This document shows, piece by piece, positions 2,731 through 28,961 of a DNA stretch of 64,000 nucleotides. The notes beneath the pieces are model-generated. The model worked only from the letters and a program-made list of their open reading frames with translations, had not been told where the DNA came from and ran no database searches. The stretch is from positions 128,001-192,000 of the forward strand of contig CAWJJC010000010.1 in assembly GCA_963843145.1 (NCBI GenBank), written 5' to 3'. The DNA comes from an uncultured delta proteobacterium (lineage in GTDB: Bacteria > Desulfobacterota > RBG-13-43-22). Within the stretch, counting starts at the first letter, position 1; the number at the start of each line of letters is the position of its first letter. A program made the translations under genes and the position numbers.

Positions 2731-4515
2731 ATGTCCCATTTTAGAGTGAACGAAAAGGATCTTTTTTTTATTTTGAAAAGCCAGTTGAATTACGGCAGTC
2801 TGTGCCGCTTGGACCGTTACCGGGAGCTGGATGAAGACACCTTGGACCTGCTGGTCAAGGAGGCTCTGAAATATGCCCGGACTGAAATTGCCCCACTCCA
2901 GGAGATCGGGGAAAACTGGGGGGTGGTCTTCGACCAGGGGGCGGTTCGCTGTGCTCCCGAGTTCAAACAGGCTTTCCGGCAATACGGTGAAAACGGCTGG
3001 ATTGCCGCGGCCCGGGCCCCGGAATACGGTGGCCAAGGATTTCCCCACATGACGCGCATCGTCATTAACGACCTGATGTATGGGGCTTGCCAGGCCTTTA
3101 ACATGGCCCCCAGCCTGACCCATGGGGCTGCTCACCTGATCGAAAACTTCGGGAGCCGGGAACTAAAGGAACGCTTTGTGCCGTCCATGTTCAGCGGGCA
3201 ATGGGCCGGGACCATGGCCCTCACCGAACCACAAGCCGGCTCCAACCTGGCCGCCATCCGGACCACCGCCATGCCCGAAGGCGAGCACTACCGGATCAAG
3301 GGCTCCAAGATCTTCATCTCCTGGGGAGACCACGACCTGACGGAAAACATCATTCACCTGGTCCTGGCCCGCATCGAAGGGGCGCCCGAAGGCGTCAAGG
3401 GCATTTCGCTGTTCGTCGTTCCCAAGGTCCGGATCAACCCGGACGGTTCCCTCGGGCAACCAAATGACGTGGTCTGCGGCGGCGTCGAAAAAAAACTGGG
3501 TCTCCACGCCTCGCCTACCTGTCAGTTGCTTTTCGGGGAACAAGACGGGTGTATCGGCTATCTGTGCGGCGAAGAAAACAACGGCCTGGCCCACATGTTC
3601 CAGATGATGAACGCCGCCCGTATCAATACCGGCGTGAGCGGAATGACCCTGGCCGGCAGCGCCTATCTCAACGCCCTGGCCTATGCTCGGGAGCGGATCC
3701 AGGGCTCGGATCTGGCCGGTCGCAAACCGGGCTTTGTCCCGATCATCGACCACCCCGACGTGCGGCGCATGCTGCTTTGGATGAAGGCTTCGGTGGATGG
3801 AATGCGTTCCATGATATACACCGGGGCCTACTGGTCGGACCTGGCTCTGGAGCTGCCCGAAGGGGAAGAGAAGAAACATTACCAGGCCCTGGTGGATTTT
3901 CTAACCCCGATCATCAAGGCCTACTGCTCGGATATGGGCTTTCGGGTCTGTGAAACCGCTATCCAGTGCCTGGGCGGCTATGGATTTTGCCGCGAGTACC
4001 CCCTGGAACAATACTTAAGAGATTCAAAGATCATGTCCCTTTACGAGGGTACCAACGGCATTCAGTCCGTCGACCTGCTGGGAAGAAAGATGCGGTTGAA
4101 TGGCGGGGCGCTGTTCAAGGCCTTCCTGTCCGAGATTCAGGAGTTCTGTAGGAAACATTCCTCCCAGCCCGTCCTTGGGTCGGAAATCCAGGCCCTGGCC
4201 AAGGCCGTGGAGCGATTGGCCGAAACCGCCCGTACACTGGCTGAAAAGATGAAAACCGATCCGCTCCAGTGGGCCTCCTATACCTACCCGGCCCTGCTGT
4301 GCTTTGGCGATATTACCATGGTCTGGCGACTCCTCGACCTGGCGGTCATCGCCCAGGAACAGATAGACTCCGGCAAGGGCACTGATTTTCTCTCCGGAAA
4401 AGTGGCTCAAGCCACCTACTTCACCGGGACGACCTTGCCGCTGACCCTGGCCCGGCTGGAGACCTGTCTGCGGTCCGGGCGGGAGGTAGTGGATATGCCG
4501 GAAGGGGCTTTCTAA
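2731..4515 (+). CDS. Acyl-CoA dehydrogenase (long, FadE5/DmdC-like subfamily)
   Basis: TMALTEPQAGS, GSKIFIS, KLGLHASPT, GGYGF, YEGTNGIQ. Confidence 0.92.
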   Translation: MSHFRVNEKDLFFILKSQLNYGSLCRLDRYRELDEDTLDLLVKEALKYARTEIAPLQEIGENWGVVFDQGAVRCAPEFKQAFRQYGENGWIAAARAPEYGGQGFPHMTRIVINDLMYGACQAFNMAPSLTHGAAHLIENFGSRELKERFVPSMFSGQWAGTMALTEPQAGSNLAAIRTTAMPEGEHYRIKGSKIFISWGDHDLTENIIHLVLARIEGAPEGVKGISLFVVPKVRINPDGSLGQPNDVVCGGVEKKLGLHASPTCQLLFGEQDGCIGYLCGEENNGLAHMFQMMNAARINTGVSGMTLAGSAYLNALAYARERIQGSDLAGRKPGFVPIIDHPDVRRMLLWMKASVDGMRSMIYTGAYWSDLALELPEGEEKKHYQALVDFLTPIIKAYCSDMGFRVCETAIQCLGGYGFCREYPLEQYLRDSKIMSLYEGTNGIQSVDLLGRKMRLNGGALFKAFLSEIQEFCRKHSSQPVLGSEIQALAKAVERLAETARTLAEKMKTDPLQWASYTYPALLCFGDITMVWRLLDLAVIAQEQIDSGKGTDFLSGKVAQATYFTGTTLPLTLARLETCLRSGREVVDMPEGAF

Positions 4516-4545: not shown

Positions 4546-5994
4546 ATGGCCTTAAAAACAGGGGCGGAATACCTCGATTCCATCGAATCTTATGGGCTAG
4601 CGGCCCACATCCTGGGAAAAGAAACCAGCGACCTGACCGAACACGGCCTGGTCCAACCCTCCCGGCAGGCGGTGGCCTTTACCTATGATGCCGCCCACCA
4701 ATCGGAAACCCGGGATCTGTTCTGCGTCGAGTCACCGCTGTGTCAGGATACCGTGAACCGCTTCACCCATATTCACCAAAGCACGGAAGACCTGATCAAC
4801 AAAGTCAAGATGCAGCGCTACTGCGGCGTTCAGACCGCCTGCTGTTTTCAACGCTGCGTTGGACTGGACGCGGCCAACGCCATCTTCAGCACCACCTTTG
4901 ACTGCGACCGGAAGCACGGGACTTCCTATCACCAACGTTTCAGGGACTACTGGAAATCGATCCAGCAACAGGATCTGTTGGTGGACGGGGCCATGACCGA
5001 TCCCAAAGGGGACCGGGGGAAGCGCCCCAAGGACCAGCAGGACCCGGACCTGTACCTGCGGATCAAGGAACGCCGGTCGGGGGGCGTGGTGATCAGCGGG
5101 GCCAAACTCCATCAAACCGGCATGCTCAATTCCCACGAGATACTGGTCATGCCCACCCTGACGATGCGGGCGGGGGAAGAGGACTGGGCGGTCTGCTGCG
5201 CGGTTCCCACCAATGCCGAGGGCGTCCGGCACATCTACGGACGGCAGACCAGCGATACCCGGAAACTGGAAGCCTTTCCACTGGACAAGGGCAATCCCAC
5301 CTATGGCGGCCAGGAAGTGATGACCGTTTTTGAGGATGTATTTATCCCCGACGAACGCCTTTTCCTTAACGGGGAAGTCGATTTCTCCGGAATCCTGGTC
5401 GAGCGGTTCGCCTCCTATCACCGGCAGAGCTACGGGGGCTGCAAAGTCGGGGTAGGCGACGTCCTCATCGGAGCTGCGGCCTTGATCGCCCGGATGAACG
5501 GCGTATCGGAGGCCAGCCACATTAAGGATAAAATCGTGGAAATGATCCAGCTCAATGAAACGATCTATGCCTGCGGACTGGCCTGTTCCGCCACCGGTGA
5601 AAAGACCCCGGCCGGAAATTACCAGGTTAACCTGCTCCTGGCCAACGTCTGCAAGCTGAATGTCACCCGCTTCCCTTTCGAACTGGCCCGGCTGGCTACG
5701 GACATCGCCGGCGGCCTCCTGGGGACCATGCCTTCGGCCGCGGATCTGGATGACCCGGTGACCGGTCCCTATATCCAGAAATACCTGGCCGCCTCTCCGG
5801 GCAGTCGGGTGGTCGACCGCATGAAGGTGCTGCGCCTGATCGAAAACCTGGTGGCCGGCGCCGGAGCCGTGGGCTATCTCATCGAGTCCATGCACGGGGC
5901 CGGGCCCCCCATGGCCCAGCGGATCATGATCGGCCGTCAGGCCGACCTCGAGGGCAAGATCAGCCGGGTCGAGAAACTGCTGGGTTTGGTATGA
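4546..5994 (+). CDS. abfD: 4-hydroxybutyryl-CoA dehydratase/vinylacetyl-CoA isomerase family
   Basis: CFQRC and HRQSYGGCK Fe-S ligand motifs, GAMTDPKGDR, ESMHGAG. Confidence 0.85.
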   Translation: MALKTGAEYLDSIESYGLAAHILGKETSDLTEHGLVQPSRQAVAFTYDAAHQSETRDLFCVESPLCQDTVNRFTHIHQSTEDLINKVKMQRYCGVQTACCFQRCVGLDAANAIFSTTFDCDRKHGTSYHQRFRDYWKSIQQQDLLVDGAMTDPKGDRGKRPKDQQDPDLYLRIKERRSGGVVISGAKLHQTGMLNSHEILVMPTLTMRAGEEDWAVCCAVPTNAEGVRHIYGRQTSDTRKLEAFPLDKGNPTYGGQEVMTVFEDVFIPDERLFLNGEVDFSGILVERFASYHRQSYGGCKVGVGDVLIGAAALIARMNGVSEASHIKDKIVEMIQLNETIYACGLACSATGEKTPAGNYQVNLLLANVCKLNVTRFPFELARLATDIAGGLLGTMPSAADLDDPVTGPYIQKYLAASPGSRVVDRMKVLRLIENLVAGAGAVGYLIESMHGAGPPMAQRIMIGRQADLEGKISRVEKLLGLV

Positions 5995-7298: not shown

Positions 7299-8882
7299 AT
7301 GGGTAGTGGAAAGCACGATTTAGATCAAGGCTGGTTGTCGGAGGTCGAGGAACTTCGCCTTCGGGAACGTCTGGCGACCCAGATGGGCGGGGAGGAAAAC
7401 CTGGCCCGCCATCGGGCGGCCGGTCGTTTGAACGTCCGGGAGCGGATCGATCGTTTGCTGGATAAAGGCAGCTTCCACGAAACCGGCGCCATCACCGGGG
7501 TTCCCACCTGGAAGGAAGACCGCTTGGTCAAATTATTTCCCTCCAATTTTGTCCTGGGGACCGGGCGGATCGATCGGCGCCGGGTAGTGGTGGGGGCCGA
7601 CGACTTTACCATTCGCGGCGGAGCGGCCGATGCCGCCATCGGACACAAGGCGGCCTACGCCGAACGGATGGCCCTGGATCTTCGCCTGCCCATGATCCGC
7701 CTGGTGGACGGTACCGGAGGTGGAGGAAGCGTTAAATTTCTGGAGCAGATGGATCGCACCTACGTGCCTTACAACCCGGGCATGGACACCATGGCCGAGT
7801 TGCTTTCCACCGTGCCGGTAGTCAGCGCCGCCCTGGGATCGGTGGCCGGTCTGGGCGCGGCCCGGGTGGTCTTTTCCCATTTCTCGGTCATGCCCCGCAA
7901 AACGGCCCAGCTCTTTGTAGCCGGACCACCGGTGGTGGAACCGGCGCTGGGCCGGAAAGTGGGTAAGGAGGAACTCGGCGGGTCCCAAATCCAGACCGGC
8001 GGCTTCGGCGCCGTGGACAACGAGGTGGCCACCGAAGAAGAAGCCTTTGATCAGGTCCGCCGTTTTCTTTCCTACCTGCCGGATTCGGTCTATGAACTTC
8101 CTCCGGTTCAGGCGTCTTCCGATCCGGTCGACCGCCGCGAGGAGGAACTGATCCGCATCATCCCTAAAAACAAACGCCGACCCTACCCGGTGCGCCGCAT
8201 CCTGACGCTGGTGCTGGACCAGGGATCGTTTTTCGAGATCGGGGCCAAACATGGCCGTTCGGTGGTCACCGGCCTGGGTAGGCTGTCCGGCCGGCCGGTG
8301 GGGGTTTTCGCCCACGATTCCAACTTTTTCGGCGGCGCCATCACCGCCCAAGGGGCCGACAAGCTGGTTCGCTTCATCGATCTTTGCGACACCTTCCACC
8401 TGCCGGTGGTCAATTTTGTGGACAACCCGGGCTTCATGATCGGGGTGGAGGCGGAGAAACAGGGCACCATCCGCTTCGGGGCCCGCTACATCTTTGCCGT
8501 CTACCAGGCTACGGTCCCCTGGTGTTCCATCATCCTCCGGCGGGTCTACGGAGTCGCCGGAGCGGCCCATGGCAACCATTCCCGTCTCAACCTGCGTTAC
8601 GCCTGGCCTTCGGGCGAATGGGGCTCCCTGCCCATCGAGGGGGGCGTGCAGGCGGCCTACCGCCGACAGATCGAAGCCTCCGAAGATCCTCAGGCCCTGC
8701 GCCAGGAAATCGAGCAGCGTCTGTCGAAGTTCACCTCCCCCTTCCTGACCGCCGAGAAGTTCGGCATTGAGGAGATCATCGACCCTCGCGACACCCGGCC
8801 GCTGCTCTGCGAATGGGTTGAAAATGCCTACCGCCTGCTGCCCAGCCAGTTGGGGCCGAAAAAACGGGGTATGCGTCCTTAA
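7299..8882 (+). CDS. Acyl-CoA carboxylase/decarboxylase, carboxyltransferase (beta) subunit
   Basis: RERIDRLLD, DDFTIRGG, EELGG, FVDNPGF, IIDPRDTR. Confidence 0.9.
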   Translation: MGSGKHDLDQGWLSEVEELRLRERLATQMGGEENLARHRAAGRLNVRERIDRLLDKGSFHETGAITGVPTWKEDRLVKLFPSNFVLGTGRIDRRRVVVGADDFTIRGGAADAAIGHKAAYAERMALDLRLPMIRLVDGTGGGGSVKFLEQMDRTYVPYNPGMDTMAELLSTVPVVSAALGSVAGLGAARVVFSHFSVMPRKTAQLFVAGPPVVEPALGRKVGKEELGGSQIQTGGFGAVDNEVATEEEAFDQVRRFLSYLPDSVYELPPVQASSDPVDRREEELIRIIPKNKRRPYPVRRILTLVLDQGSFFEIGAKHGRSVVTGLGRLSGRPVGVFAHDSNFFGGAITAQGADKLVRFIDLCDTFHLPVVNFVDNPGFMIGVEAEKQGTIRFGARYIFAVYQATVPWCSIILRRVYGVAGAAHGNHSRLNLRYAWPSGEWGSLPIEGGVQAAYRRQIEASEDPQALRQEIEQRLSKFTSPFLTAEKFGIEEIIDPRDTRPLLCEWVENAYRLLPSQLGPKKRGMRP

Positions 8883-11933: not shown

Positions 11934-12293
11934 TTAGGATACGGGCTTATTGTTTTGCAGAGCTTCAAAAAACTTTTGGCAGACCGCCTCTAATGGATCG
12001 AGTTTATTCTGGACCACATCCCAAACGATGGGTAAATTGATCCCAAAATATTCATGAACCAGAATATTCCGCATTCCGGTAATTTTACGCCAATCTATCT
12101 TGCAAGTCGTTTCTTTAAAACTATCCGGTAGGCTTTTCGCTGCCTCGCCAATAATCTCCAGGTTCCGGGCTACGGCATCCTGGGTTTTTCTATCGTTGGC
12201 AAACGATTTTTCGTCTTGGCCTTCGACATAGGACCTGATTTGCTTTATCGCCTCAAGAATGTCATCGAGGTAAAGGCGATAGTCCCTAGACAT
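11934..12293 (-). CDS. HepT/DUF86 HEPN ribonuclease toxin
   Basis: DAVARNLEIIGEA and HEPN R-x4-H motif RNILVHEY. Confidence 0.9.
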   Translation of the reverse strand: MSRDYRLYLDDILEAIKQIRSYVEGQDEKSFANDRKTQDAVARNLEIIGEAAKSLPDSFKETTCKIDWRKITGMRNILVHEYFGINLPIVWDVVQNKLDPLEAVCQKFFEALQNNKPVS

Positions 12294-12573
12294 AGACCGC
12301 CTCACCGGCGATGATCGGCCGAAGACGGGGTTTCAATGAGTCAGCCAAAACCAGGTCCACAGACCTTCTAAGTTGGTCCTCCAGAAAAAATTTCAAATCC
12401 ATATAATGATCCAAAGTCGGTTGGGCCAACTCTACTAAAATATCTATATCGCTCTGGTCGTCGGCGGAACCATGCAGAAAAGAGCCAAACAATCCGATAC
12501 GCTTAACGGTGAACCGCCTCTCGATCTCACTTTTGTTTTTTTTTAAAAAATCGACAATCTTTTCACTATCCAT
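12286..12573 (-). CDS. MntA-type minimal nucleotidyltransferase antitoxin
   Basis: LFGS...SDIDILV, VDLV; overlaps the HEPN gene start. Confidence 0.9.
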   Translation of the reverse strand: MDSEKIVDFLKKNKSEIERRFTVKRIGLFGSFLHGSADDQSDIDILVELAQPTLDHYMDLKFFLEDQLRRSVDLVLADSLKPRLRPIIAGEAVYV

Positions 12574-12631: not shown

Positions 12632-12669
12632 AAAAAGGCCCTTCCTCTGAGAATGAGAAAAGGGCCTTA
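12632..12669 (-). terminator. Probable intrinsic terminator after the AOR-ADH gene
   Basis: AAGGCCCTT...AAGGGCCTT stem followed by a T-run on the minus strand. Confidence 0.55.
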
Positions 12670-12786: not shown

Positions 12787-15639
12787 TCAATCATACATCT
12801 CCTGCAGCAACTCCAGAATTTTCCGCCGGCTGGGGGTGGTGGGATCGGTGGCCATATTCACCGCGTCGCGCGAGGTGTAAAAGGCGATCTTCTCCAGGTC
12901 CCCTTGGGGAATTCCCTCGGCCTTCAGGCTGATGCGGATATCGAGCTTCTCGTAGAAGGCCAGCAGGCTTTCCAGGAGGTCGTTGGAGCGGTTCAACATC
13001 TGGGCCAGATCGGTAAAGGGGTCCTTACAGGTGTCCCGGTTGGCCCGGACAAAGCCGAGGAGGCCGTAGATGGCCGCCCGACCGTGGGGCAGATGGTAGT
13101 GGGCGCCCAGCACATGGGTAATGGCATGGCCGATCCCCAGGCCTTTCAGAAAGGCCAGGCCGCCGCAGAGGGCCGCCATGCACAGGTCGGTCCGGGCGGC
13201 GATATCCTCCCCGTCCCGATAGGCCCGGGGGAGGCTGCGCCCGATCAGTTTAACCCCGTAAACCGCCATGGACTCGAAGTAGGGGTGGTAGGGGGTGGCC
13301 AGGGAAACATAGCCCTCGACGCAGTGGGCCAGGGCGTCGATACCGGAGGCGATGGTCAGTCCGGGCGGCATAGTCCGGCAGAACAGGGGATCGATGACCG
13401 CCACCCGCGGGATCAGGTGATTGCTCATCAAAACCAGTTTCAGGTCCCGTTCCTTATCGGTAATCACCGCGCAGGGGTTGACCTCGCTTCCCGTCCCGGA
13501 AGTAGTCGGCAGGCAGAGGATCGGCGGTAGAATCGGCTTGATTTTGCCGCCTCCGCCCACAATCCCTTCAAATTCCCTCAGGTCCCCGGAGTGGGTGACC
13601 TGCAACCCGAGGGCCTTGGCCGTATCCATCGAACTGCCGCCGCCCAGGCCGAGAATGCCGTCACAGCCTGATTCGATATACAGCCGCCCGGCTCGTTCGA
13701 TGAGTTCGATGGGAGGATCGGGCTCCACCTCCGAAAAAACAACCGTTTCGATACCCCGAGGCTCAACGATCCGGCGGATCTCGTCCGCCCGCCCCAGGGA
13801 ATACATGACCGGATCGGTAACGATAAACAGTTTCCTGACCTGAAGACGCTTCAGGACTTCCCCCATTTTTCCCGCCACCCCGGCGCCGAACAGCGTTTCC
13901 GGCAGGGGCGGGATGCGGATTTCCCAGATCTTTTCTTTTTCCTGAAAGGAGTCCAGCCCGGCCCAGAAATGCGTGATCTCGGCCTCCTCCACATCGAAAA
14001 CCTGGTGGGTCGGGGCAACCGCCTCCTCGCGAATAAAGGCGGCCTCCCGGGTGTCCCCCCGGCTGAATTCGGCCTTTCCATTGAAAGCGAGCTGATCCCT
14101 AAGCGTCTGTTTGCCGATCTCCAGGACATCCGCGGGCGTCCACCGGCCCCCGTAGCGGGCGTTCAACAGATCGGCCAGGAAGGGATAGAGGGAAACCCGT
14201 CCGCCGGGAACGGCATTCAGGCAGTAGCCGAAAGCGTCACAGACGGCGGCCTGGACCTGGGCCTTGAGCGAATTCTCCGCTTGTTTCGTTCGGCTGAGGG
14301 GAATCCGGTAGGTCAGCCCGGCCGTGTGATCCGCGCCCATGGGGCTGGTGTAATAGGTGACCCCGGTTCCCTTGGTCGATCGGGGATCATGGCCGGGCAG
14401 GGCCTGCCCTTTATAGGCGGGCACCCGGCTGACGCCCAGGTATTGGGCGGTGGCCACCACCCCGTTTCCCAGGGCCCGGCCCAACGGCGTTTCCCGTTCC
14501 ATTTCTTCCAGCAGCCGCGCGGCCGAGGACCAATCGCCGAAGGTCATTTTCCCGGCCTCCGCCGCCAGGCCCAAAGCGCTGCCGGTTTCGATGGCATCGA
14601 CCCCCAGATCGTCGCAAAGGAATTTGAGCCGGGCAATGGCATCCGGATCGGTGATGCCCAGATTGCTTCCCAGCAGGGCGATAGTTTCATATTCATACGC
14701 CGAGCAGATCCGTTTCCCTTCCTGATCGGGATAGATGATGGAACAGCGGACCACGCAGCCGGGCATACAGCCGTGCATCCGGCCGCCCCGCTCAAAAAGG
14801 ATTTTCTGGATGCTGTTGCCGCTTACGGCGATAAAATCTTCGGGCCGGCCCGAACGGTAATTCAGGGTCGGCAAGGTCCCCTGGCTGGCGGAATTGGAAA
14901 CGGCGAAAGGCGTGCCGAAGCGGGAATAAAGGCTGCAACTCACATCGTGTTTGAGGGTGTTGACCCAGGATTTCACCCGCCGGCGAAAGGCCTCCGGATC
15001 GGCCGTCGCCACCGGACCGGTCTTTGCGGGATCGATGATAATGGCCTTGAGCCCCTTGGACCCCATCACGGCCCCGAGCCCTCCCCGGGCGGCATTCCGC
15101 GAGGGATCCCCGAACAGATCGGTCAAGGAGACCGAGGCCCCCCGGTATTTCCGCTCTCCCGCCGGGCCGGTAGAGATGATCGCCGTCTTTTCCCCGTGCT
15201 TTTCCCTCAGTCGCCCGGCCAGTTCGTAATTTTTAAGGCCCCGGTATTCCTCGGCCGGGATCAAGGCCGCCCGATCCCCGGAGATCGATAAGACGGTTAA
15301 GCGGCCATCCGGCGGAGCGCCGTGAACAACGATGGCGCGAATCCCCAGCCGGTCGAGGAATTGTCCGGCCGGGCCTCCGGCATTGGCCTCTTTGATCCCC
15401 AGCGTCAGGGGACTCTTGGCCCCGACGGAGATGCGCCCAAGCTGGGGCGCCCCGGTGCCGGCCAGGGGGCCGACGGCCACAATAAAGGCATTCTCGGGAC
15501 CCAGGGGATCCACCGCCGGCGGGACCTCCCGGTTCATGATCCGGGCCAACAATGCGCTGCCGCCGATGGGCAGCCAGTCCTCCCGGAGGCCCTCAAATTC
15601 AATCGTTCCCGTTTCCATGTTTAATCGCAGCAGCTTCAT
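12787..15639 (-). CDS. Fusion of aldehyde:ferredoxin oxidoreductase (AOR family, ~570 aa) and iron-containing alcohol dehydrogenase (~380 aa)
   Basis: AOR part: AKSPLT, GLGAVMGSKGLKAI, CMPGCVVRC, EYET, GADHT, DAFGYC. ADH part: GGGSSMD, PTTSGTGSE, DALAHCVE, GHAITH, PHG. Confidence 0.9.
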   Translation of the reverse strand: MKLLRLNMETGTIEFEGLREDWLPIGGSALLARIMNREVPPAVDPLGPENAFIVAVGPLAGTGAPQLGRISVGAKSPLTLGIKEANAGGPAGQFLDRLGIRAIVVHGAPPDGRLTVLSISGDRAALIPAEEYRGLKNYELAGRLREKHGEKTAIISTGPAGERKYRGASVSLTDLFGDPSRNAARGGLGAVMGSKGLKAIIIDPAKTGPVATADPEAFRRRVKSWVNTLKHDVSCSLYSRFGTPFAVSNSASQGTLPTLNYRSGRPEDFIAVSGNSIQKILFERGGRMHGCMPGCVVRCSIIYPDQEGKRICSAYEYETIALLGSNLGITDPDAIARLKFLCDDLGVDAIETGSALGLAAEAGKMTFGDWSSAARLLEEMERETPLGRALGNGVVATAQYLGVSRVPAYKGQALPGHDPRSTKGTGVTYYTSPMGADHTAGLTYRIPLSRTKQAENSLKAQVQAAVCDAFGYCLNAVPGGRVSLYPFLADLLNARYGGRWTPADVLEIGKQTLRDQLAFNGKAEFSRGDTREAAFIREEAVAPTHQVFDVEEAEITHFWAGLDSFQEKEKIWEIRIPPLPETLFGAGVAGKMGEVLKRLQVRKLFIVTDPVMYSLGRADEIRRIVEPRGIETVVFSEVEPDPPIELIERAGRLYIESGCDGILGLGGGSSMDTAKALGLQVTHSGDLREFEGIVGGGGKIKPILPPILCLPTTSGTGSEVNPCAVITDKERDLKLVLMSNHLIPRVAVIDPLFCRTMPPGLTIASGIDALAHCVEGYVSLATPYHPYFESMAVYGVKLIGRSLPRAYRDGEDIAARTDLCMAALCGGLAFLKGLGIGHAITHVLGAHYHLPHGRAAIYGLLGFVRANRDTCKDPFTDLAQMLNRSNDLLESLLAFYEKLDIRISLKAEGIPQGDLEKIAFYTSRDAVNMATDPTTPSRRKILELLQEMYD

Positions 15640-15818
15640 ATCGGCACTTCCTTTGAATAATCAAGATTTAAGGGCGCTATCCTATCATAATGCCCACCGC
15701 AAGTCCAAAGGGATGCGGCAGCAGAGGTCATAAAATTCTTAAGTTTTAGTCCTCGGCTCCGATAATCAGCTAGGGCCGTCGGCCATACTATTTAACATTT
15801 TTTGCAAGGGGGAAAATA

Positions 15819-16262
15819 ATGAAACGATTTTTCGTGGTTTTTTTGGTGTTGGGGTTGTTTGTGGGAACGGTCTATGCTGCCTCGGAAAAAGACCTGGCCG
15901 TCTCCTTAGTGGAAAAGGCGGCGGCCTTCGCTCAGGCCCAGGGCAAAGAGAAGGCCCTGGCTGAAATCAGCACGGCCAAGGGACAATTCGACAAGGGGGA
16001 AGTCTACGTGTTTGCCTATGATCTGCAGGGAGTGATCGTAGCCCACCCCAAGAATCCCAAGTTGATCGGCAAGAACCTTTTAGAGGTCCCCGACCCGGAC
16101 GGAAAATTCTTCCGTAAAGAGATCCAGGAAGTGGCCAAGACGAAGGGGACGGGCTGGGTGGATTACAAATACACCAATCCTGTAAATAAAAAAGTAGAAC
16201 ATAAGACCACCTATCTGAAGAAGGCAGGCGATCTTATTATTTGCTGCGGAGTATATCTATAG
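15819..16262 (+). CDS. Secreted stand-alone single Cache-domain protein
   Basis: Signal peptide ending VYA/AS; YVFAYD...AHP, DPDGK, GWVDY, GVY. Confidence 0.85.
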   Translation: MKRFFVVFLVLGLFVGTVYAASEKDLAVSLVEKAAAFAQAQGKEKALAEISTAKGQFDKGEVYVFAYDLQGVIVAHPKNPKLIGKNLLEVPDPDGKFFRKEIQEVAKTKGTGWVDYKYTNPVNKKVEHKTTYLKKAGDLIICCGVYL

Positions 16263-16681: not shown

Positions 16682-18397
16682 GTGAATTTTTTTATTCAAC
16701 CGAAGCGATACATCACTCTAATGGCCGATGAGGGCTCGCGGCTCCTTATGGAGAAAACCATTGCCTTCTTTGAAAACATGGGCAAAAGCCGGCTGCTTGA
16801 AGACTACAACCGAAAAATCTGGTACCGGGAATTTGTCGATTTCATCGGCCGGGAGCGGATTTTCGCCAAGCTGCTTACGCCCAAGGTATATGCCGATGAC
16901 GACCCGGACTGCCGCTGGGACACGGCGCGCAATAACGAGTTCAGCGAATTATTGGCTTTTTACGGCTTGGGCTATTGGTATTGCTTCCAGGTCACCATTC
17001 TGGGGCTGGGCCCCATCTGGATGAGCCCCAACGAAAAGGCCAAACAGAAAGCGGCCCGACTCCTTCGGGAAGGCGCCATCTTCGCCTTCGGCCTGTCCGA
17101 ACGGGCACATGGGGCGGATATTTACGCCACCGAAACCACCCTGACCCCCCGGGGCGACGGCACCTGGTCGGCCAACGGCGAGAAGTATTACATCGGCAAC
17201 GGCAACGAGGCGGAGATGGTTTCCACCCTCGGCAAGGTCAAAGACGGGACGGACGATTTTGTCTTCTTTGTCACCAACTACCGCCATAAGGCCTATGAGC
17301 TGAAAAAGAACGTCATCTCCCACCAGGAGTACGTCTCCAACTTCGCCCTGCACGACTATCCCGTCACCGAGGACGATATCCTTTCCCGGGGTCCCCTGGC
17401 CTGGGATTCGGCGCTGAATACGGTAAACATCGGCAAGTTTAATATCGGCCCGGCCTCCATCGGAATGGCCGAACACTGTTTCTACGAGGCCATTACCCAT
17501 GCCGCCCACCGCGTCCTTTACGGGGTTCGGGTCAGCGATATGCCTCATGTGCGTCGAAACTTCATGGACGCCTGGCTGCGGCTGACGGCCATGAAAAGCT
17601 ATCATCGCCGGGCCACCGACTACTTCCGGCAGGCCGGGGAATATGACCGGCGCTATCTGCTCTACAACCCCACCAGCAAGATGAAGGTGACCCTGCAATC
17701 CGAAGAGGTGATCAACCTGCTCTGGGAGGTGATTGCCGCCAAGGGTTTTGAAAAGGACACCTACTTCCACATGGCCGCCGCCGACGTCCGGGGCCCGTCC
17801 AAGCTCGAAGGCACCGTCCACGTAAATGTCCAGCTCATCCGCAAATTCATGAAGAACTATTTTTTCAGCCCCGCGGAATATGCCCCGGTGGGTCCCGATT
17901 TTTCCCTGAAAGACGACCTGTTCTTGTTCAATCAGGGACCGACCAAGGGTTTGGGCGCGGTCCGGTTTCATGACTACCGGCCGATATTCGAAGCCTTCCG
18001 GGATCTCCCCAACGTCGGCCGCTTCATCCGCCAGACCGAGATCTTCAGGGAGCTGCTCGAAAAGGCCGGACCGGACAAGATCCAGGATCTGGACCCCGTT
18101 TTCTCGCTCCCCCTCGGCGAGATGTTCTCCATCGTGGTCTACGGCCAGCTCATTTTGGAGCAGGCGCAGCTTGAGCACCTGGACTCGGATGTTCTCAACC
18201 AGATCTTCGATTTTATGGTGCGGGACTTCGCGCGGTTCGCTTTGCAGATCTACGGTCTGCCCGCCACCCGAGAGGAACAACGGGCCTTCTGTCAGGAGGT
18301 CATGCTGGTCCGGCCTGCCGGAGATGAGGCCCAATACCGGCGGGTCTGGGAGGGGTATGTCCTTCCCCTGAATGGAGAGTACGCCATGAATGAGTGA
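16682..18397 (+). CDS. Acyl-CoA dehydrogenase family protein
   Basis: FGLSERAHGAD, KYYIGNGN, NIGKFN, KLEGTVHVN. Confidence 0.85.
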   Translation: MNFFIQPKRYITLMADEGSRLLMEKTIAFFENMGKSRLLEDYNRKIWYREFVDFIGRERIFAKLLTPKVYADDDPDCRWDTARNNEFSELLAFYGLGYWYCFQVTILGLGPIWMSPNEKAKQKAARLLREGAIFAFGLSERAHGADIYATETTLTPRGDGTWSANGEKYYIGNGNEAEMVSTLGKVKDGTDDFVFFVTNYRHKAYELKKNVISHQEYVSNFALHDYPVTEDDILSRGPLAWDSALNTVNIGKFNIGPASIGMAEHCFYEAITHAAHRVLYGVRVSDMPHVRRNFMDAWLRLTAMKSYHRRATDYFRQAGEYDRRYLLYNPTSKMKVTLQSEEVINLLWEVIAAKGFEKDTYFHMAAADVRGPSKLEGTVHVNVQLIRKFMKNYFFSPAEYAPVGPDFSLKDDLFLFNQGPTKGLGAVRFHDYRPIFEAFRDLPNVGRFIRQTEIFRELLEKAGPDKIQDLDPVFSLPLGEMFSIVVYGQLILEQAQLEHLDSDVLNQIFDFMVRDFARFALQIYGLPATREEQRAFCQEVMLVRPAGDEAQYRRVWEGYVLPLNGEYAMNE

Positions 18398-19590: not shown

Positions 19591-19840
19591 TTCGACGATT
19601 ATAAACCGAGGTCGATATAAACCTAAAGGCAAATTCGCCAGGTATTGAACGCTGGAGGAAGGGAAAATGAGAATGCCGGACTGATTCGGGGCCGAAAATA
19701 TCTCGAAGAGGCGATTTTTTTCTTGAAATTCAAACCTGTTTTGTAACAAATTGGACTAGTGTCATCCGGGAACGGCTATTTGGGTTTTTCAGTAAGGCCG
19801 ATCCCATCCTGTTAGGCAAATCCCCATGAGGGAGGGCGGA

Positions 19841-21058
19841 ATGAAAGTGGTGATCATTGGTCTGAGTGCCGCCGGTCTTTCGGCCTTGGAAACACTCCTG
19901 CGGTTTGCCCCCGAGGCCGAGATCACGGCGATCTCCGAGGAAAAACGGCAACCCTACTGCCGCTGCCTGCTCACTCAGTACCTCGGTCGTGAAGTCCAAC
20001 AGGATTTTCTGACGATTCGGGAGACAGCCCATTACCCAAAAAACGTGACCTGGCTTCTCGGGGAGCGAGTCTCGCAGATCGACCCGGGGAAGAAATCGAT
20101 CGCCTGTTCCTCCGGCCGCACCCTGAACTACGATAAATTATTGATCGCTGCCGGAGCCGGCGCCGTCCAGCCAGAATATTGCCGGGACGAAAACCGGACC
20201 CATACCTTGCGGTTTTTGGAAGACGCCCTGCAGATCGAAAACCTGGCCGTCGGGAGAGGGATCGTTGCCGGAGGCGGTTTTGTGGGCCTCAAGACGGCCT
20301 ATGGGTTGAAGGAAAGGGGCCTGGAGGTGGAAATGGTCGTCTCCTCCCCGCATCTGCTGTCCATGGTCATGAACGAACGGGCAGCGGTCTGGGTGGAAAA
20401 GGATCTTAAGTCCCTGGGCGTGGTCCTGAACCGAAATGACGATATTGCCCAAATCAGCGTCAAGGATCACCAGGTCCGGGCCGCGTTGAAATCAGGGAAA
20501 GAAATCCGGAGTGATGTCCTGGTAGTGGGCAAAGGGGTCGTTCCCCGGCTGGAGCTGGCCCGAAGCGCCGGTTTGACCGTCGAGGCCGGTATCCTGGTCA
20601 ATGAATTTTTGGAAACCTCTGCGCCGGATATTTTTGCCGCCGGGGACTGCTGCCAGGCCCTGGATGTAACCCGGGGACGACCCTGGATCAACGCCGTCTG
20701 GCCGGTGGCGGTGGAGCAGGGGTATTTTGCCGGCCAGAACCTGGCCGGGGTCCCGGCGGTCTATCCGGGGAGTATCGGGTTGAATAGTCTGAAAACACCC
20801 CGTTTCCATCTCATCAATGCCGGACTTTTGAACACCGCTGACGGAGTCACCTTTCACGAGCGACAGACTCCCGGCAAAGATCAGTTCCGCATGCTGGCTC
20901 TGCGGGAAGATATCCCGGTGGGTATGAGTTTTTATAATGCCCCCGAAGGCGCCGGGCCGGTGGTGAACCTTATCCGGCGGGGCCTGCCCCTGGCTCACGG
21001 CCTCCCGGAAGCCATCGTCAGCGGGGAGGCCTCCCTGTACGATTTGCTCAAAAACTGA
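19841..21058 (+). CDS. FAD/NAD(P)-dependent oxidoreductase (FNOR) associated with CODH
   Basis: IIGLSAAG, YDKLLIAAG, GGGFVG, IFAAGD; first gene of the coo cluster. Confidence 0.85.
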   Translation: MKVVIIGLSAAGLSALETLLRFAPEAEITAISEEKRQPYCRCLLTQYLGREVQQDFLTIRETAHYPKNVTWLLGERVSQIDPGKKSIACSSGRTLNYDKLLIAAGAGAVQPEYCRDENRTHTLRFLEDALQIENLAVGRGIVAGGGFVGLKTAYGLKERGLEVEMVVSSPHLLSMVMNERAAVWVEKDLKSLGVVLNRNDDIAQISVKDHQVRAALKSGKEIRSDVLVVGKGVVPRLELARSAGLTVEAGILVNEFLETSAPDIFAAGDCCQALDVTRGRPWINAVWPVAVEQGYFAGQNLAGVPAVYPGSIGLNSLKTPRFHLINAGLLNTADGVTFHERQTPGKDQFRMLALREDIPVGMSFYNAPEGAGPVVNLIRRGLPLAHGLPEAIVSGEASLYDLLKN

Positions 21059-21134: not shown

Positions 21135-21728
21135 ATGAAAACGGTGGTAGTCAGGCCCGAGCGTTGTGTCGGCTGCCTGCAGTGCCGTGTGGCCTGCGCG
21201 GTGGCCCACTCGCTGAGCCAGTCCCTCTACGCGGCGCCCTATGAGTCGGTGCTATCCAAGCCCCGCATCCACATCGGGCTTTCCAAAGAAAAGGAGCCCT
21301 TTCCCAACAAGTGCCGGCACTGCGACCCGGCGCCCTGCGAGATGGCCTGTCTGACCAAGGCCATTTTCCGCGAAGATAAAGCCCGGGCCATGATGATCAA
21401 TCCCGATCGCTGCATCAATTGCGGCATGTGCGCCATGGCCTGTCCCTTCGGCGTGATCCGCTATCATACCTATCCCAGTCATAAAGAAGCGGCCCACAAG
21501 TGCGATCAGTGCGCGGCCCGCCAGCGAGAAGGAAAAGGGCCGGCCTGCGTGGAGGTCTGCAAATCCGGCGCCCTGCTTTTTGAGGAACCCAACCGGGTCC
21601 TGGATCGGGAGACGGACGAAATGGCTTCCCTGGTCTATCTGGGCATTCGGGAAAAAGCCTCGGCCGATAATCCCTTTGCTGCCTTAACCCGTTATCGCCA
21701 TTCGCTGGAACAATTAAGGAGGAGATAA
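21135..21728 (+). CDS. cooF: CooF-like 4x[4Fe-4S] electron-transfer protein
   Basis: Four Cys groups (CVGCLQC, CRHC..PC, CINCGMC..CP, KCDQC..PAC). Confidence 0.88.
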   Translation: MKTVVVRPERCVGCLQCRVACAVAHSLSQSLYAAPYESVLSKPRIHIGLSKEKEPFPNKCRHCDPAPCEMACLTKAIFREDKARAMMINPDRCINCGMCAMACPFGVIRYHTYPSHKEAAHKCDQCAARQREGKGPACVEVCKSGALLFEEPNRVLDRETDEMASLVYLGIREKASADNPFAALTRYRHSLEQLRRR

Positions 21729-27400: not shown

Positions 27401-28961
27401 CGGCCGGGCCGCCTATTGGGTCGACACCGTATTAAAAAAATCCCCTTCAAAAAAAGCCGATCAGGAGGAGAACCCGCTGCCGGATCTCTTCCAGCAGTGG
27501 CTTTCCTTCTACGGACCGATCCGGAAATCCTCTCTGAAAGAGGTGCTGGGTCTCGAGGGTGTCCGACTGGATGACCTGTTGGCCGGCTTGGCGGAAGCCC
27601 AGGAGGTGGTGCTCGACCTGTTGACGGAACAGGCCGAAGAGCTGGAAATCTGTGACCGGGAAAACCTGGAGATCCTGCTCCGGATGGCCCGCAGGTCCCG
27701 GCAGCCTTCCTTCCAGGCCCTCGACTTGGACCGGCTGCCGCTGTTTCTGGCCGACTGGCAGGGCCTCACCCGGCCGGGCCACTCGCCCGATGACCTCCAG
27801 CGCATCCTGGATCAGCTCTTTGGATTCCCGGCCGCCGCCGACGCCTGGGAGAAACAGTTTCTGCCGGCCCGCTTATCGCCCTATTACGGTGCCTGGCTGG
27901 ACGGTCTGATCCACTCCGGTCCTCTTCTCTGGTTCGGCTGCGGCCTTCGTAAATTGAGCCTAGCCTTCTCCGACGACCTGGAACTCTTCCTCGATCCCGG
28001 CAGTGCCGGATCCGGATCGAAAACAGCGGAGACGAAGACCGGGGAGGAGGAACTGGTCCGTCTGCTGCCCCGGGAAATCGGACGTTACGGCCTGCTGGAT
28101 ATTATCCGCCATTCAAAAATGGACAGCCGGACCGTAACCGGAAAACTCTGGGACCTGGCCTGGCAGGGGCGGATCACCAATGACGCCTTCACCGCCCTGC
28201 GCCAGGGGATCGTGACGGATTTTGCTCCGTTTCCTTTAAATGAGGCCGGCCCCCGGCCTTCCCGATCGGCCTTTAACCGCTGGGCCGCTACACGCCCGCT
28301 GTCCGGAAACTGGTACGCTATCGACCGCGATAAGATGGATAAAGATCCCATCGCGGAAGCGGAATTGGTCAAGGACCGGGTCCGTCAGCTCCTCCGGCGC
28401 TATGGTCTACTCTTCCGGGAACTGGTAGCGGGCGAGCTGCCGCTGCTTCGCTGGTCCAGGGTATTCAAGGCCCTACGGCTCATGGAGCTTTCCGGCGAGA
28501 TCCTCTCCGGGCATTTTTTTCAAGGTATCCCCGGCCTGCAATTCATCTCCCCCGAGGCCTTCCGCTTCTTAAACGAACCCCAGACGGAGGACCCCGTTTA
28601 CTGGCTGAATGCCGCCGACCCGGCCTCGCTTTGCGGGATTAAACTGGAGGCCTGGAAGGGCCTCCTCCCCAGCCGCCGACCTTCGACGCATCTGGTCTAC
28701 CGCGGATCTCGATTGGTCATCATTTCCCGCCGGAACGGCGGGTCCCTGGAAATGCGGATCCCTCCCGAAGACCCGCGTCTCCCCGACTACCTGGCCTTTT
28801 TTAAGGTGCTGTTAACTCGCGAATTCAGTCCCGAAAAAATCATACTGGTGGAAACGATCAACGGGAAGCCTGCCCTGGAAAGCGAATACGCCGGTCCTTT
28901 GAAGGCCTTCGGTTTTTACAGAGGCTATAAAGGATTAGAGTTGGTGAAGAAATATGATTGA
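24453..28961 (+). CDS. lhr: Large Lhr ATP-dependent helicase (~1500 aa) with C-terminal extension; three +1 frameshifts (~24545, ~26296, ~26515)
   Basis: APTGSGKT, SPLKAL, TTPES, DEIH, SAT, HHGSL, LELGID, QRIGRSGH; C-terminal LLRRYG and NAADPASL. Confidence 0.88.

Follow-up and report, generated by a model that had tools for sequence, protein, structure and literature searches.

A recurrent single-chain fusion of an aldehyde:ferredoxin oxidoreductase with an iron-containing alcohol dehydrogenase in uncultured syntrophs and sulfate reducers

Does a single polypeptide of an uncultured delta proteobacterium unite an aldehyde:ferredoxin oxidoreductase (AOR) with an iron-containing alcohol dehydrogenase (Fe-ADH), and which reaction would such a protein catalyze? 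The question is raised by gene P0001 at positions 12787..15639 (minus strand) of the 64,000-nucleotide stretch that was analyzed as a whole and is referred to as the window. The gene starts with ATG and encodes 950 amino acids without internal stop codons. Four Pfam domains follow each other on the minus strand with E-values far beyond chance: AFOR_N (residues 2–203, 15031..15636; E 2e-56, 191 bits at a cut-off of 29.8), AFOR_C domains 2 and 3 (residues 230–533, 14041..14952; E 8e-49, 167 bits, cut-off 27), the NAD-binding domain of Fe-ADH (residues 581–751, 13387..13899; E 6e-46, 157 bits, cut-off 31.3) and the catalytic domain ADH_Fe_C (residues 762–949, 12793..13356; E 2e-35, 122 bits, cut-off 27). 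A sequence-only reading of the window had described one uninterrupted 950-aa reading frame in which an AOR domain is joined to an Fe-ADH. The reading frame and the four domains bear this out, and the same domain set was recovered from other genomes. The AFOR_C match covers positions 11–337 of the 385 profile positions. Judged by the profile alignments this shortness is a trait of the subfamily and not a truncation, because the match of the unfused proteins P0124 and P0127 likewise stops at profile position 344–345 of 385. Two plus-strand reading frames of 253 and 440 aa within the gene were rejected as antisense shadows in DNA of 60–66% GC. A ribosome-binding site (AAAGGAAG, 15647..15654, minus strand) was read from the sequence 8 nt 5′ of the ATG, and a terminator-like hairpin with a T-run (12639..12663, minus strand) lies about 125 nt past the stop codon, as detected solely by a consensus scan that found 6 sites compared to 5.6 expected from shuffled sequences. 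The gene looks monocistronic in the window.

The N-terminal half aligns to the AOR of Pyrococcus furiosus (1aor) across residues 3–539 (E 2e-57). The Fe–S cysteine motifs perceived in the sequence-only reading are indeed present: C291-x3-C295-x3-C299 (14743..14769, minus strand) and C473 (14221–14223, minus strand) align to the four [4Fe-4S] cysteines of 1aor and 1b25 and are invariant in our 41-row alignment A1, as are most catalytic and cofactor residues of the AOR. Compared to the CxxCxxxC spacing of 1aor and 1b25, the first spacer is longer by one residue (CxxxCxxxC), a feature also found among unfused relatives of about 570 aa. The motifs CDDLGVD and CDAFGYC align to the corresponding 1aor motifs and, following the motif definition D-x-x-G-x-(D/C), presumably bind the pterin; D343, G346, D348, D468 and C473 are invariant in A1. 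AFOR_C carries Thr243, Glu318 (Glu313 of the P. furiosus enzyme, PfAOR), His417 at the position of PfAOR Tyr427, and His438 (PfAOR His448). According to a recent classification of the tungsten oxidoreductases (WORs), Thr243, Glu313, Tyr427 and His448 in PfAOR numbering are highly conserved in aldehyde-oxidising members (PMC13328260, 2026). In 17 of 17 rows of clade A, one of the fusion clades of the AOR tree, the four cysteines and both pterin motifs are kept along with the equivalents of Thr243, Glu313 and His448, while the Tyr427 position is occupied by His in all 17 of these fusions, in 5 of 5 unfused sister sequences and in 6 of 37 unfused relatives. By its domains, cysteines and pterin motifs, the AOR half is classified as a large subunit (WorL) of the AOR/WOR family.

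The C-terminal half aligns to the NAD-dependent methanol dehydrogenase 8zrl across residues 582–946 (E 3e-61) and also to the ADH domains of AdhE (3zdr, 6tqh and others). The Asp and His metal ligands noted earlier can be specified as D768, H772, H838 and H852, which we take to be the ligands from the alignment to FucO/8zrl-type enzymes and from the residue numbering of these. Together with G666-G667-G668-S669 they are invariant in 41 aligned fusions from three clades. D609 in 'VTDP' of the NAD-binding domain is kept in at least 90% of the A1 rows and, by the rule 'Asp after strand 2', presumably signals a preference for NAD over NADP. Domains, ligands, the GGGS stretch and the fold identify this half, at the level of sequence and model, as an iron-containing (group III) alcohol dehydrogenase.

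The two halves meet at residues 540–580 (13900..14022, minus strand), a segment that is conserved at the protein level among the fusions and contains no low-complexity linker. The AOR module ends at about residue 565, the same place where its unfused relatives end, and passes straight into the N-terminal strand of the ADH (W-EIRIPPLPETLFGAGV), which begins near residue 580; the junction at nt ~13900–13945 thus falls where it had been expected from the sequence (13900–13950). An AlphaFold model of the whole protein reached a mean pLDDT of 86.7 and a pTM of 0.87, with confidence below 50 at residues 408–431 and 435–445, the stretch holding His417 and His438. The AOR half superposes on solved AOR with a TM of 0.75–0.79 of the target and the ADH half on solved Fe-ADHs with a TM of 0.89–0.92, and the structure comparison found no solved chain spanning both halves. 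When the halves were modelled as two chains (AOR 1–566, ADH 567–950), a score of 0.81 was obtained in 3 of 3 runs, compared to 0.00 for the best of three controls. Of 80 solved complexes 58 attain this score, versus 2 of 110 mismatched pairs, a calibration that holds only roughly because the two-chain model was built on our own alignment. The runs had at least 61% of contacts in common, with a partner pLDDT of at least 90. In the model the ADH module (688–694, 728–733, 780–781 and 917–935) packs with a defined interface on AOR helices bearing Thr243 (230–253, including the Thr243 helix, 269–282, and 444).

A reading frame of this kind could also arise if faulty assembly or base calling had merged two neighbouring genes in the source MAG. 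Base errors in this assembly are plausible, because the window holds other genes that look frame-shifted, one for CODH/prismane and one for an Lhr helicase, each split into two open reading frames in different frames. Nevertheless, the unbroken architecture is present in all of the best 120 protein clusters listed (drawn from ENA, JGI, NCBI and Logan; all four domains, 936–966 aa, 75–93% identity) and in 70 named loci from different MAG projects, most of which span residues 1–950 at 64–92% identity. These MAGs belong to Syntrophaceae, Smithellaceae, Desulfomonilaceae, Syntrophobacteraceae and Desulfobacteraceae. Conservation extends to the junction, and no indel within the gene was seen in the public contigs compared, which give thin cover. 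Since clusters and loci share the fusion, an artefact is effectively refuted and has practically no probability left. Of the findings that could have spoken against the sequence-only reading, neither a break at the junction nor a confinement to this genome was observed: the frame is open here and in the 70 independently assembled loci, and of the 401 genomes sampled from the phylum, 13 have a full-length match and 2 more have partial matches at contig ends. It is likewise conceivable that only the AOR is active and that the ADH-like module has a regulatory or structural role as in ErcA, an alcohol-dehydrogenase-like regulatory protein and the top NCBIfam match of the ADH half (NF041833, E 5e-76). 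However, the score of 256 bits lies below the cut-off of 550, so the fusion is not a member of ErcA. The invariance of the four ligands and the GGGS stretch in 41 fusions from three clades is unlike a domain that has lost catalysis, and the fold matches that of active Fe-ADHs at the high TM values given above. We regard a non-catalytic ADH module as very improbable.

A tree of AOR sequences (70 rows) places clade A (17 rows, support 99) as sister to unfused AORs, while clade B (5 rows, support 100) and clade C adjoin different unfused AORs, and three proteins with the reverse order (ADH to AOR) fall in a distant branch of canonical AORs. Between clades the ADH halves are 28–40% identical and thus no closer than to stand-alone ADHs (30–47%). 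On the basis of these comparisons AOR and Fe-ADH were fused independently at least three to four times, in both orders and once in Heimdallarchaeota. Locus L149, with an ADH gene (411 aa) and an AOR gene (634 aa) in frame and one stop codon between them, is by its sequence a near-fusion state.

In the window the fusion gene lies alone between a toxin-antitoxin pair (MNT/HepT) and a gene for a small Cache protein. Divergent from it, a 571-aa ACAD-like protein is encoded (16682..18397, plus strand) that is 53–54% identical to the ACAD-like gene product of clade-B operons. Further genes on the plus strand encode an acyl-CoA dehydrogenase of 594 aa with Acyl-CoA_dh_C (2731..4515), 38% identical to the ACAD whose gene immediately follows the fusion at other loci, a 482-aa homologue of the 4-hydroxybutyryl-CoA dehydratase AbfD at a distance of 6.8 kb (4546..5994; 1u8v, E 7e-179) and, by homology, a carboxyltransferase of the glutaconyl-/methylmalonyl-CoA decarboxylase alpha type (7299..8882). 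Clade-B operons have the order sigma-54 activator, SCP2, fusion, acyl-CoA synthetase, ACAD and thiolase, and a FadE5-like ACAD directly follows the clade-A fusion in 18 of 70 loci, a context that points to acyl-CoA metabolism. In one relative (L028) a ThiS-like 'WorX' gene is located just upstream of the fusion.

We consider it probable that the fusion is bifunctional, with a Class-I-like W/Mo AOR (residues 1 to ~565) and an NAD(H)-type Fe-ADH (~570–950) that together interconvert alcohol and acid via the aldehyde. The ADH module would catalyze alcohol + NAD+ ↔ aldehyde + NADH, and the AOR module, as a single-subunit W/Mo-pyranopterin enzyme carrying one [4Fe-4S] cluster, aldehyde + H2O + 2 Fd(ox) ↔ acid + 2 Fd(red). 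Electrons should not flow between the modules because the ADH is without an electron-transfer cofactor; the aldehyde would be the sole link and need never leave the protein. In either direction the uphill half-reaction would be tied to the downhill one, the free aldehyde would be held low and four electrons would be shared between the NAD and ferredoxin pools, with neither CoA nor ATP needed. Alcohol is thus probably converted to acid, or the reverse, without release of toxic aldehyde, and in these syntrophs and sulfate reducers we infer the oxidative direction to be the more likely one. The sequence-only reading had proposed an acid–aldehyde–alcohol enzyme that links ferredoxin and NAD(H) and may channel the aldehyde. 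The intact residues, the junction, the recurrent fusion and the modelled interface fit this proposal, in which activities, metal, ferredoxin partner, channelling and substrate keep the status of predictions. Alternatively, each module alone could clear aldehydes by oxidation or reduction depending on the redox state, the fusion merely securing co-expression without channelling. This would agree with the widely varying neighbourhoods of clade A, with the apparently monocistronic gene in the window and with 11 AOR/ADH-related matches in the source genome, which suggest broad aldehyde handling; moreover, most characterised Class I WORs are assigned to aldehyde detoxification in Table 2 and section 6 of PMC13328260. 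For co-expression, however, an operon suffices, as on contig C28 of the same genome, and at least three to four independent fusions, the conserved linker-free junction and the confidently modelled interface by the AOR active-site helix would be left unexplained. In addition, the clade-B operons look catabolic, as they include genes for acyl-CoA synthetase and beta-oxidation. Mere aldehyde scavenging therefore appears improbable to us.

Within the bifunctional reading, a narrower substrate assignment can be put forward tentatively for clade A, namely a 4-hydroxybutyrate dehydrogenase combined with a succinic-semialdehyde:ferredoxin oxidoreductase that links succinate and 4-hydroxybutyrate without CoA. 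Together with AbfD it would give these syntrophs a connection from succinate to their crotonyl-CoA hub. By tblastn, 14 of 70 loci encode AbfD no more than 3 kb from the fusion, typically in the order thiolase, AbfD, fusion, ACAD, where AbfD precedes the fusion on the same strand by about 190 bp; of 12 further loci, 3 have it within 8 kb. The fusion-adjacent protein matches 1u8v, the 4-hydroxybutyryl-CoA dehydratase of C. aminobutyricum, with an E-value of 9e-233. The homologue in the window agrees with this, as does a clade-B-type locus (L044) with AbfD at 2.7 kb. On contig C28 of the same genome the association recurs independently: behind an ABC transporter lie separate genes for an Fe-ADH (386 aa), an AOR (584 aa) and an AbfD (491 aa), the Fe-ADH/AOR pair being at most 38% identical to any fusion. 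AbfD (E ≤ 1e-100) was detected in 14 of the 15 genomes that have a clade-A fusion versus 113 of 386 other sampled genomes, with the reservation that kin are not independent. In a few loci the cluster is followed by succinate dehydrogenase/fumarate reductase genes, with Sdh_cyt present in 4 and an SdhA-like flavoprotein in three (L025, L047, L113). Some cluster members are automatically named 4-hydroxybutyrate dehydrogenase, and this enzyme is the second-best NCBIfam match of the ADH half.

On the other hand, its score of 238 bits falls short of the cut-off of 500 (NF058672), which does not support assignment to this equivalog, and is no better than that of ErcA (256) or of the choline dehydrogenase model (234). 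In 56 of 70 loci AbfD is absent within 3 kb, and neither the 7 loci of unfused sister AORs (within ~6 kb) nor the 4 loci with reverse-order fusions have one. A gene for a 4-hydroxybutyrate CoA-transferase does not adjoin the fusion; the closest AcetylCoA_hyd_C genes lie about 30–50 kb away in three genomes (G000, G401, G402). The FadE5-like ACAD, equally frequent, together with thiolase and ECH would suit the oxidation of fatty alcohols or aldehydes as well, and our literature search found no publication tying AOR, AbfD and succinic semialdehyde together. The route from 4-hydroxybutyrate via succinic semialdehyde to succinate is thus an unproven lead from gene context. Rather speculative is the full proposal that clade A is a sixth kind of WOR, an aldehyde-channelling 4-hydroxybutyrate:succinate oxidoreductase that with AbfD forms a CoA- and ATP-free bridge between succinate and crotonyl-CoA, yielding or consuming ferredoxin, in syntrophic Thermodesulfobacteriota, with the AOR/Fe-ADH fusion reached at least three to four times including Heimdallarchaeota. 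If the 4-hydroxybutyrate assignment were true, it would add a new ferredoxin-linked tie of succinate to crotonyl-CoA in syntrophic carbon flow.

To our knowledge, no pathway in biology other than AOR plus ADH turns a free carboxylic acid into the alcohol with neither ATP nor CoA. A natural single-chain version, invented recurrently and conserved in many uncultured syntrophs and sulfate reducers, offers a ready system for testing whether a tungsten enzyme can channel an aldehyde, and a candidate part for acid-to-alcohol biocatalysis. The fusions are also Rosetta-stone evidence for cooperation of AOR and Fe-ADH in vivo in unculturable organisms. Literature searches found no published description or characterisation of the architecture, the third finding that would have counted against the sequence-only reading. 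In the classification of WORs, 'alcohol dehydrogenase' and 'fusion' do not occur in the main text, nor do 'alcohol dehydrogenase', 'PF00465', 'IPR001670' or 'Fe-ADH' in two supplement files (PMC13328260). The fusion is conserved but unstudied and, as far as the text of that classification goes, outside its five-class scheme, in which it would fill a gap.

Among the closest known systems is the two-enzyme pathway of Pyrococcus furiosus, Thermoanaerobacter sp. X514 and Clostridium autoethanogenum, which relies on the same enzyme families and achieves the same net conversion (ferredoxin for acid ↔ aldehyde, NAD(P)H for aldehyde ↔ alcohol, no CoA, no ATP). There two separate proteins share the work and the aldehyde is released between them, whereas the fusion is one chain with a conserved junction that lacks a linker and with an interface predicted by the model, and its AOR belongs to a shorter subfamily (~570 aa) with CxxxCxxxC and with His in place of Tyr427. 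In the literature 'AOR-ADH' denotes the two-enzyme pathway, and AOR and ADH cascades, engineered as two separate enzymes for bio-alcohol production, are described in PMC12096430. AdhE resembles the fusion in having an aldehyde-forming module N-terminal to an Fe-ADH and the aldehyde as shared intermediate. Its N-terminus, however, is a CoA-acylating ALDH instead of a pyranopterin/[4Fe-4S] AOR, and the fusion would use acid and not acyl-CoA as substrate or product and ferredoxin instead of NAD as second carrier. The earlier comparison with AdhE consequently stands as an analogy but not as membership: an ALDH domain is absent among the five Pfam matches of the fusion, and the AdhE model NF010378 matches the ADH half only (positions 480–757 of 872; 197 bits, cut-off 951). 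In clostridia, succinate is converted to 4-hydroxybutyrate by SucD, a CoA-dependent succinate-semialdehyde dehydrogenase, and the Fe-ADH 4HbD/AbfH, followed by AbfT and AbfD (see also PMC10249356). The fusion shares with this route an Fe-ADH family enzyme beside 4-hydroxybutyryl-CoA dehydratase and possibly succinic semialdehyde as intermediate; SucD acts on succinyl-CoA, whereas the fusion, as a CoA-independent counterpart of SucD plus 4HbD, would employ a ferredoxin-dependent AOR on free succinate, and no CoA-transferase gene adjoins it. Among the five WOR classes, Class I consists of ferredoxin-linked enzymes with WorL only (PfAOR, PfGAPOR, BmWOR, CsWOR87; PMC13328260). The fusion resembles these by its single large subunit and one [4Fe-4S] cluster, and it fits the ferredoxin-linked Class I because no gene for a WorS-type polyferredoxin (Fer4), and none for WorN or WorABC, lies beside it in the window. 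None of the five classes, as described there, includes a WorL fused to a dehydrogenase; in Classes III and IV NAD(H) is brought in by an electron-transfer subunit, in the fusion by the fused enzyme.

The fusion gene (12787..15639, minus strand) is one open reading frame of 950 codons with an ATG start and no internal stop. A ribosome-binding site, AAAGGAAG, lies 8 nt upstream, and ~125 nt downstream there is a terminator-like hairpin, in a scan whose total was no higher than in shuffles. Pfam assigned AFOR_N to residues 2-203, AFOR_C to residues 230-533, Fe-ADH to residues 581-751 and ADH_Fe_C to residues 762-949 of the encoded protein (P0001), with E-values between 2e-35 and 2e-56. This confirmed the coordinates, the junction at nt ~13900-13950 and the order of AOR followed by Fe-ADH that a sequence-only reading had proposed. 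A sequence search of solved structures aligned residues 3-539 with the AOR of Pyrococcus furiosus (PfAOR; 1aor, E 2e-57) and residues 582-946 with an NAD-dependent methanol dehydrogenase (8zrl, E 3e-61). BamB (4z3w) gave a weak match to the N-terminus (residues 6-231).

The fusion is real and conserved. All of the 120 clusters listed in a word-indexed search carry the four domains (936-966 aa, 75-93% identical). The sequence-only reading had staked its proposal on full-length copies in other genomes, and these were found: among 401 genomes sampled from the phylum, 13, including the window's own, match residues 1-949/950 at 55-100% identity, and two further genomes have partial matches at contig ends. 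The fusion-bearing genomes of this sample are covered by six family codes. GTDB species genomes contain 179 stretches encoding a relative, the best 80 of which yielded 70 loci, mostly spanning residues 1-950 at 64-92% identity. The titles of these loci give Syntrophaceae, Smithellaceae, Smithella, Syntrophales, Desulfomonilaceae, Syntrophobacteraceae, Desulfobacteraceae, Desulfatitalea and Desulfobacterales. Every one of the 70 is from a MAG, with no named isolate among them.

The junction is kept at the protein level (...FDV..E...W.GLD.F.EKEK.WE[IV]RIPPLP...G[AE]GV...), and alignments of the fusions revealed no low-complexity linker there; unfused AOR relatives have their C-terminal end at about residue 565-568. 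No indel inside the gene was seen in the public contigs matched to it, the cover of which is thin, short and of low depth. Among the public runs listed, the best share 0.27 and 0.22 of the sampled words, none shares half or more, and no RNA run appears; the bins with any depth number 18, 24, 14 and 20 of 30 for X1-X4, and a single 151-nt contig (13915-14065) enters the junction region, with no bridging by the 31-letter rule. That the fusion is an artefact is extremely improbable. Two loci behave differently: at L069 and L077 the tblastn match is 2848 nt long, which is not divisible by 3, and the L069 range contains 17 stops when translated directly; these copies may therefore carry a frameshift. 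Locus L069 was left out of the 41-row fusion alignment because of the stops, and L035 had been left out of an earlier alignment because an antisense frame had been picked.

Alignment of the AOR half with 1aor/1b25 and with its family showed that Thr243, Glu318 (PfAOR Glu313), His438 (PfAOR His448), both pterin motifs (CDDLGVD and CDAFGYC) and all four cluster cysteines (C291, C295, C299 and C473) are kept. It departs from canonical AORs by a CxxxCxxxC motif, which has one additional residue in the first cysteine spacer, and by His417 at the position of Tyr427. Neither is specific for the fusion, since the spacing is common to unfused relatives of ~570 aa and the histidine is shared by all five of the unfused sister sequences, as well as by 6 of the 37 other relatives that are not fused. 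Likewise, the short AFOR_C match, ending at profile position 337 of 385, is a trait of the subfamily (cf. P0124 and P0127). In the ADH half G666-G667-G668-S669 and the metal ligands D768, H772, H838 and H852 are invariant in 41 sequences from three fusion clades, and it is very hard to believe that the ADH-like domain is non-catalytic. The residue D609 in 'VTDP' may point to NAD, and not NADP, as the cofactor.

An AlphaFold2 model based on the 41-row alignment reached a mean pLDDT of 86.7 and a pTM of 0.87, with low confidence only at residues 408-431, 435-445 and 540-542. Foldseek matched the AOR half to solved AORs and the ADH half to solved Fe-ADHs, and found no solved chain spanning both. 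When the two modules were folded as separate chains, a score of 0.81 was obtained in three of three runs, compared to 0.00 for the best of three controls. Among solved complexes 58 of 80 attain this value, among mismatched pairs 2 of 110, a calibration that is only rough because our own input alignment was used. The two-chain runs had at least 61% of contacts in common, with a partner pLDDT of at least 90. In the modelled interface AOR residues 230-253 and 269-282 meet a C-terminal segment of the ADH (917-935) as well as ADH residues 688-694, 728-733 and 780-781, the AOR side including the helix with the active-site Thr243. The models support a fixed arrangement in which the ADH would be docked beside the AOR active-site region.

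An exhaustive search of 50%-identity representatives combined with Pfam was applied for identifying the kinds of fusion. AOR-to-ADH fusions comprise clade A (P0001 and P0024, 76% identical), clade B (P0126, 977 aa, 38% identical to P0001) and clade C (P0130, 949 aa, 35% identical to P0001, and the fragment P0160). The reverse order, ADH-to-AOR, is found in P0202, P0222 and P0239 (1004-1029 aa), for which identity to P0001 is not directly comparable; the NCBI name on the cluster of P0239 is Candidatus Heimdallarchaeota. An AOR-domain tree of 70 rows with SH-aLRT support places clade A as a single group (17 rows, support 99) next to unfused sister AORs (support 100), clade B (5 rows, support 100) as sister to P0215, clade C (support 100) with two unfused AORs, and the reverse-order fusions far off, within the canonical-AOR branch. 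Between clades the ADH halves share 28-40% identity and are no closer to each other than to stand-alone ADHs (30-47%). We read the tree and the identities as indicating that AOR/Fe-ADH fusions arose independently at least three to four times. Because the tree is unrooted and was built by a quick method, a smaller number of fusions with later fissions might also have produced this pattern. Around the nearest unfused AORs (52-53% identity) none of seven loci has an Fe-ADH within about 6 kb, that is, no split form.

On a metagenome contig (L149:6965-10105) an Fe-ADH of 411 aa and an AOR of 634 aa, preceded by a TetR gene, lie in one frame with a single stop codon between them. This pair resembles a reverse-order fusion either before joining or shortly after splitting, and suggests a possible route by which such fusions arise. 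P0215 (782 aa), of the same short AOR subfamily, has an unrelated C-terminal extension of ~200 aa with no Pfam match and is an AOR fusion of yet another kind. Four loci (L050, L088, L102 and L106) have a second AOR-ADH gene upstream of the fusion. It directly adjoins the fusion in the latter three, with Pfam confirmation for L088:1-2841 only, while three small opposite-strand ORFs intervene in L050.

In the window the fusion gene stands alone. Directly downstream, a toxin-antitoxin pair on the minus strand (11934-12573) encodes an MNT nucleotidyltransferase of 95 aa and, in a gene overlapping it by 20 nt, a HepT RNase of 123 aa. The GC content drops from 62-66% in the fusion gene to 42-47% in this stretch. 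Horizontal transfer was considered for this step and rejected, since only the island made up of the toxin-antitoxin pair and intergenic DNA is low in GC, flanking genes elsewhere having 50-63%. Divergent genes upstream encode a secreted single-Cache_2 protein with a signal peptide (147 aa; 15819-16262, plus strand) and a 571-aa ACAD-like protein with 53-54% identity to that of clade-B operons. A large Cache-PAS-CBS-DUF294 protein is encoded nearby in the clade-B locus L034. At a distance of 2.5-10 kb a plus-strand cluster comprises genes for an ACAD (594 aa), a homologue of the 4-hydroxybutyryl-CoA dehydratase AbfD (E 7e-179 against 1u8v), an old-yellow-enzyme homologue, a carboxyltransferase and an ACAD of 397 aa. 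Upstream of the fusion, inspection by eye for a sigma-54 promoter turned up no more than a near-match (GG-N11-GC), and a sigma-70 scan of the minus strand revealed no promoter-like site.

Elsewhere on the plus strand a gene of the prismane/CO-dehydrogenase family (21732-23607) is broken into two ORFs that overlap and differ in frame (21732-22853 and 22759-23607), owing to a frameshift or else to an error in base calling; genes for a pyridine-nucleotide-disulphide oxidoreductase (19826-21058) and a 4Fe-4S protein (21135-21728) precede it. An Lhr-type helicase gene (24523-28961, plus strand) is also split between frames (24523-26592, 689 aa, and 26598-28961, 787 aa), the second place in the window with an apparent frameshift. 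In the whole genome (5.35 Mb) the fusion query matched 11 AOR/ADH-related places, several of them in open frames of 643-733 aa where the match is to the N-terminal AOR part of the query alone (about residues 8-223).

Neighbours were counted by tblastn within ±3 kb of the fusion in the 70 clade-A loci. In 18 of them the gene after the fusion is a FadE5-like ACAD, a thiolase is present in 13, glutaconyl-CoA-decarboxylase-type GcdA and GcdB in six each and a TPP enzyme in four; where AbfD occurs the typical order is thiolase, AbfD, fusion, ACAD, and the remaining loci have no neighbours in common. At L027 the AbfD gene is overlaid by an antisense ORF. Succinate dehydrogenase/fumarate reductase genes follow the fusion cluster in a few loci. 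Clade-B operons have a constant gene order of sigma-54 activator, SCP2, fusion, acyl-CoA synthetase and ACAD-like gene, followed by thiolase or ACAD, and would read as a route from alcohol via acid and acyl-CoA into beta-oxidation.

The fusion is probably a bifunctional alcohol:NAD+/aldehyde:ferredoxin oxidoreductase. As the Fe-ADH is without an electron-transfer cofactor, the aldehyde intermediate would be the sole link between the modules. Being fused would allow whichever half-reaction is favourable to pull the other: alcohol oxidation would be pulled by the AOR step in the oxidative direction, acid reduction by the ADH step in the reductive direction. Fusion would also hold free aldehyde low; that the protein serves purely as an aldehyde scavenger seems unlikely. 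We favour the oxidative direction, which would yield NADH and reduced ferredoxin, because the hosts are syntrophs and sulfate reducers with beta-oxidation neighbours.

A more specific role, action on 4-hydroxybutyrate by a route tied to AbfD, is a tentative lead from gene context and at present rather doubtful. The only reaction we know of for AbfD is the interconversion of 4-hydroxybutyryl-CoA and crotonyl-CoA, and in clostridia its gene adjoins that of an Fe-ADH-type 4-hydroxybutyrate dehydrogenase. AbfD adjoins the fusion in 14 of the 70 loci (±3 kb) and, with the range set to ±8 kb, in 3 of another 12; one locus of clade-B type has it as well. Among the sampled genomes it is present in 14 of 15 with a fusion compared to 113 of 386 others, a comparison in which kin are not independent. 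Moreover, the window's own genome has a second, unfused cluster in the order Fe-ADH, AOR, AbfD on another contig (C28:260000-279000, minus strand). There a sigma-54 activator fragment and a Liv-type ABC transporter (binding protein, two permeases, two ATPases) are followed by an Fe-ADH of 386 aa, an AOR of 584 aa and a homologue of 4-hydroxybutyryl-CoA dehydratase with 491 aa. No protein of this cluster exceeds 38% identity to any fusion, and this is an independent association of ADH, AOR and AbfD. Nevertheless, AbfD is absent from most clade-A loci (±3 kb), from all seven loci of unfused sister AORs and from all four loci of reverse-order fusions. The latter number stems from a metagenome scan in which 76 of 80 loci were plain ADHs, as the patterns were drawn from the ADH half, and were left out of the analysis. 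In addition, the score of the 4-hydroxybutyrate dehydrogenase model did not reach its cut-off and had no advantage over those of other Fe-ADH models, and no CoA-transferase gene adjoins the fusion, the nearest being 30-50 kb off.

AOR and ADH acting as separate enzymes form an established pathway, and both families and their chemistry are well known. Schut et al. 2021 reportedly defined 92 clades of tungsten oxidoreductases (WOR). The sequence-only reading had allowed that the fused architecture might already be characterised; a full-text literature search, with the 2021 WOR-clade paper outside its scope, found no description of it. The 2026 WOR classification (PMC13328260) distinguishes five classes according to their subunits and describes no dehydrogenase fused to any of them, and two of its supplement files contain no mention of alcohol dehydrogenase or Fe-ADH; a 2025 tungsten-enzyme review (PMC12096430) likewise mentions no fused form. 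Public records label the fusions by one half, as 'iron-containing alcohol dehydrogenase' or 'aldehyde:ferredoxin oxidoreductase'. The protein is not an AdhE, because it lacks the ALDH domain which AdhE has. The fusion is uncharacterised. The pairing of AOR with ADH is in itself to be expected, and public databases already contain the sequences; what makes the fusion noteworthy is that it apparently arose repeatedly by convergence, that an interface between its modules was modelled and that the 4-hydroxybutyrate lead is testable.
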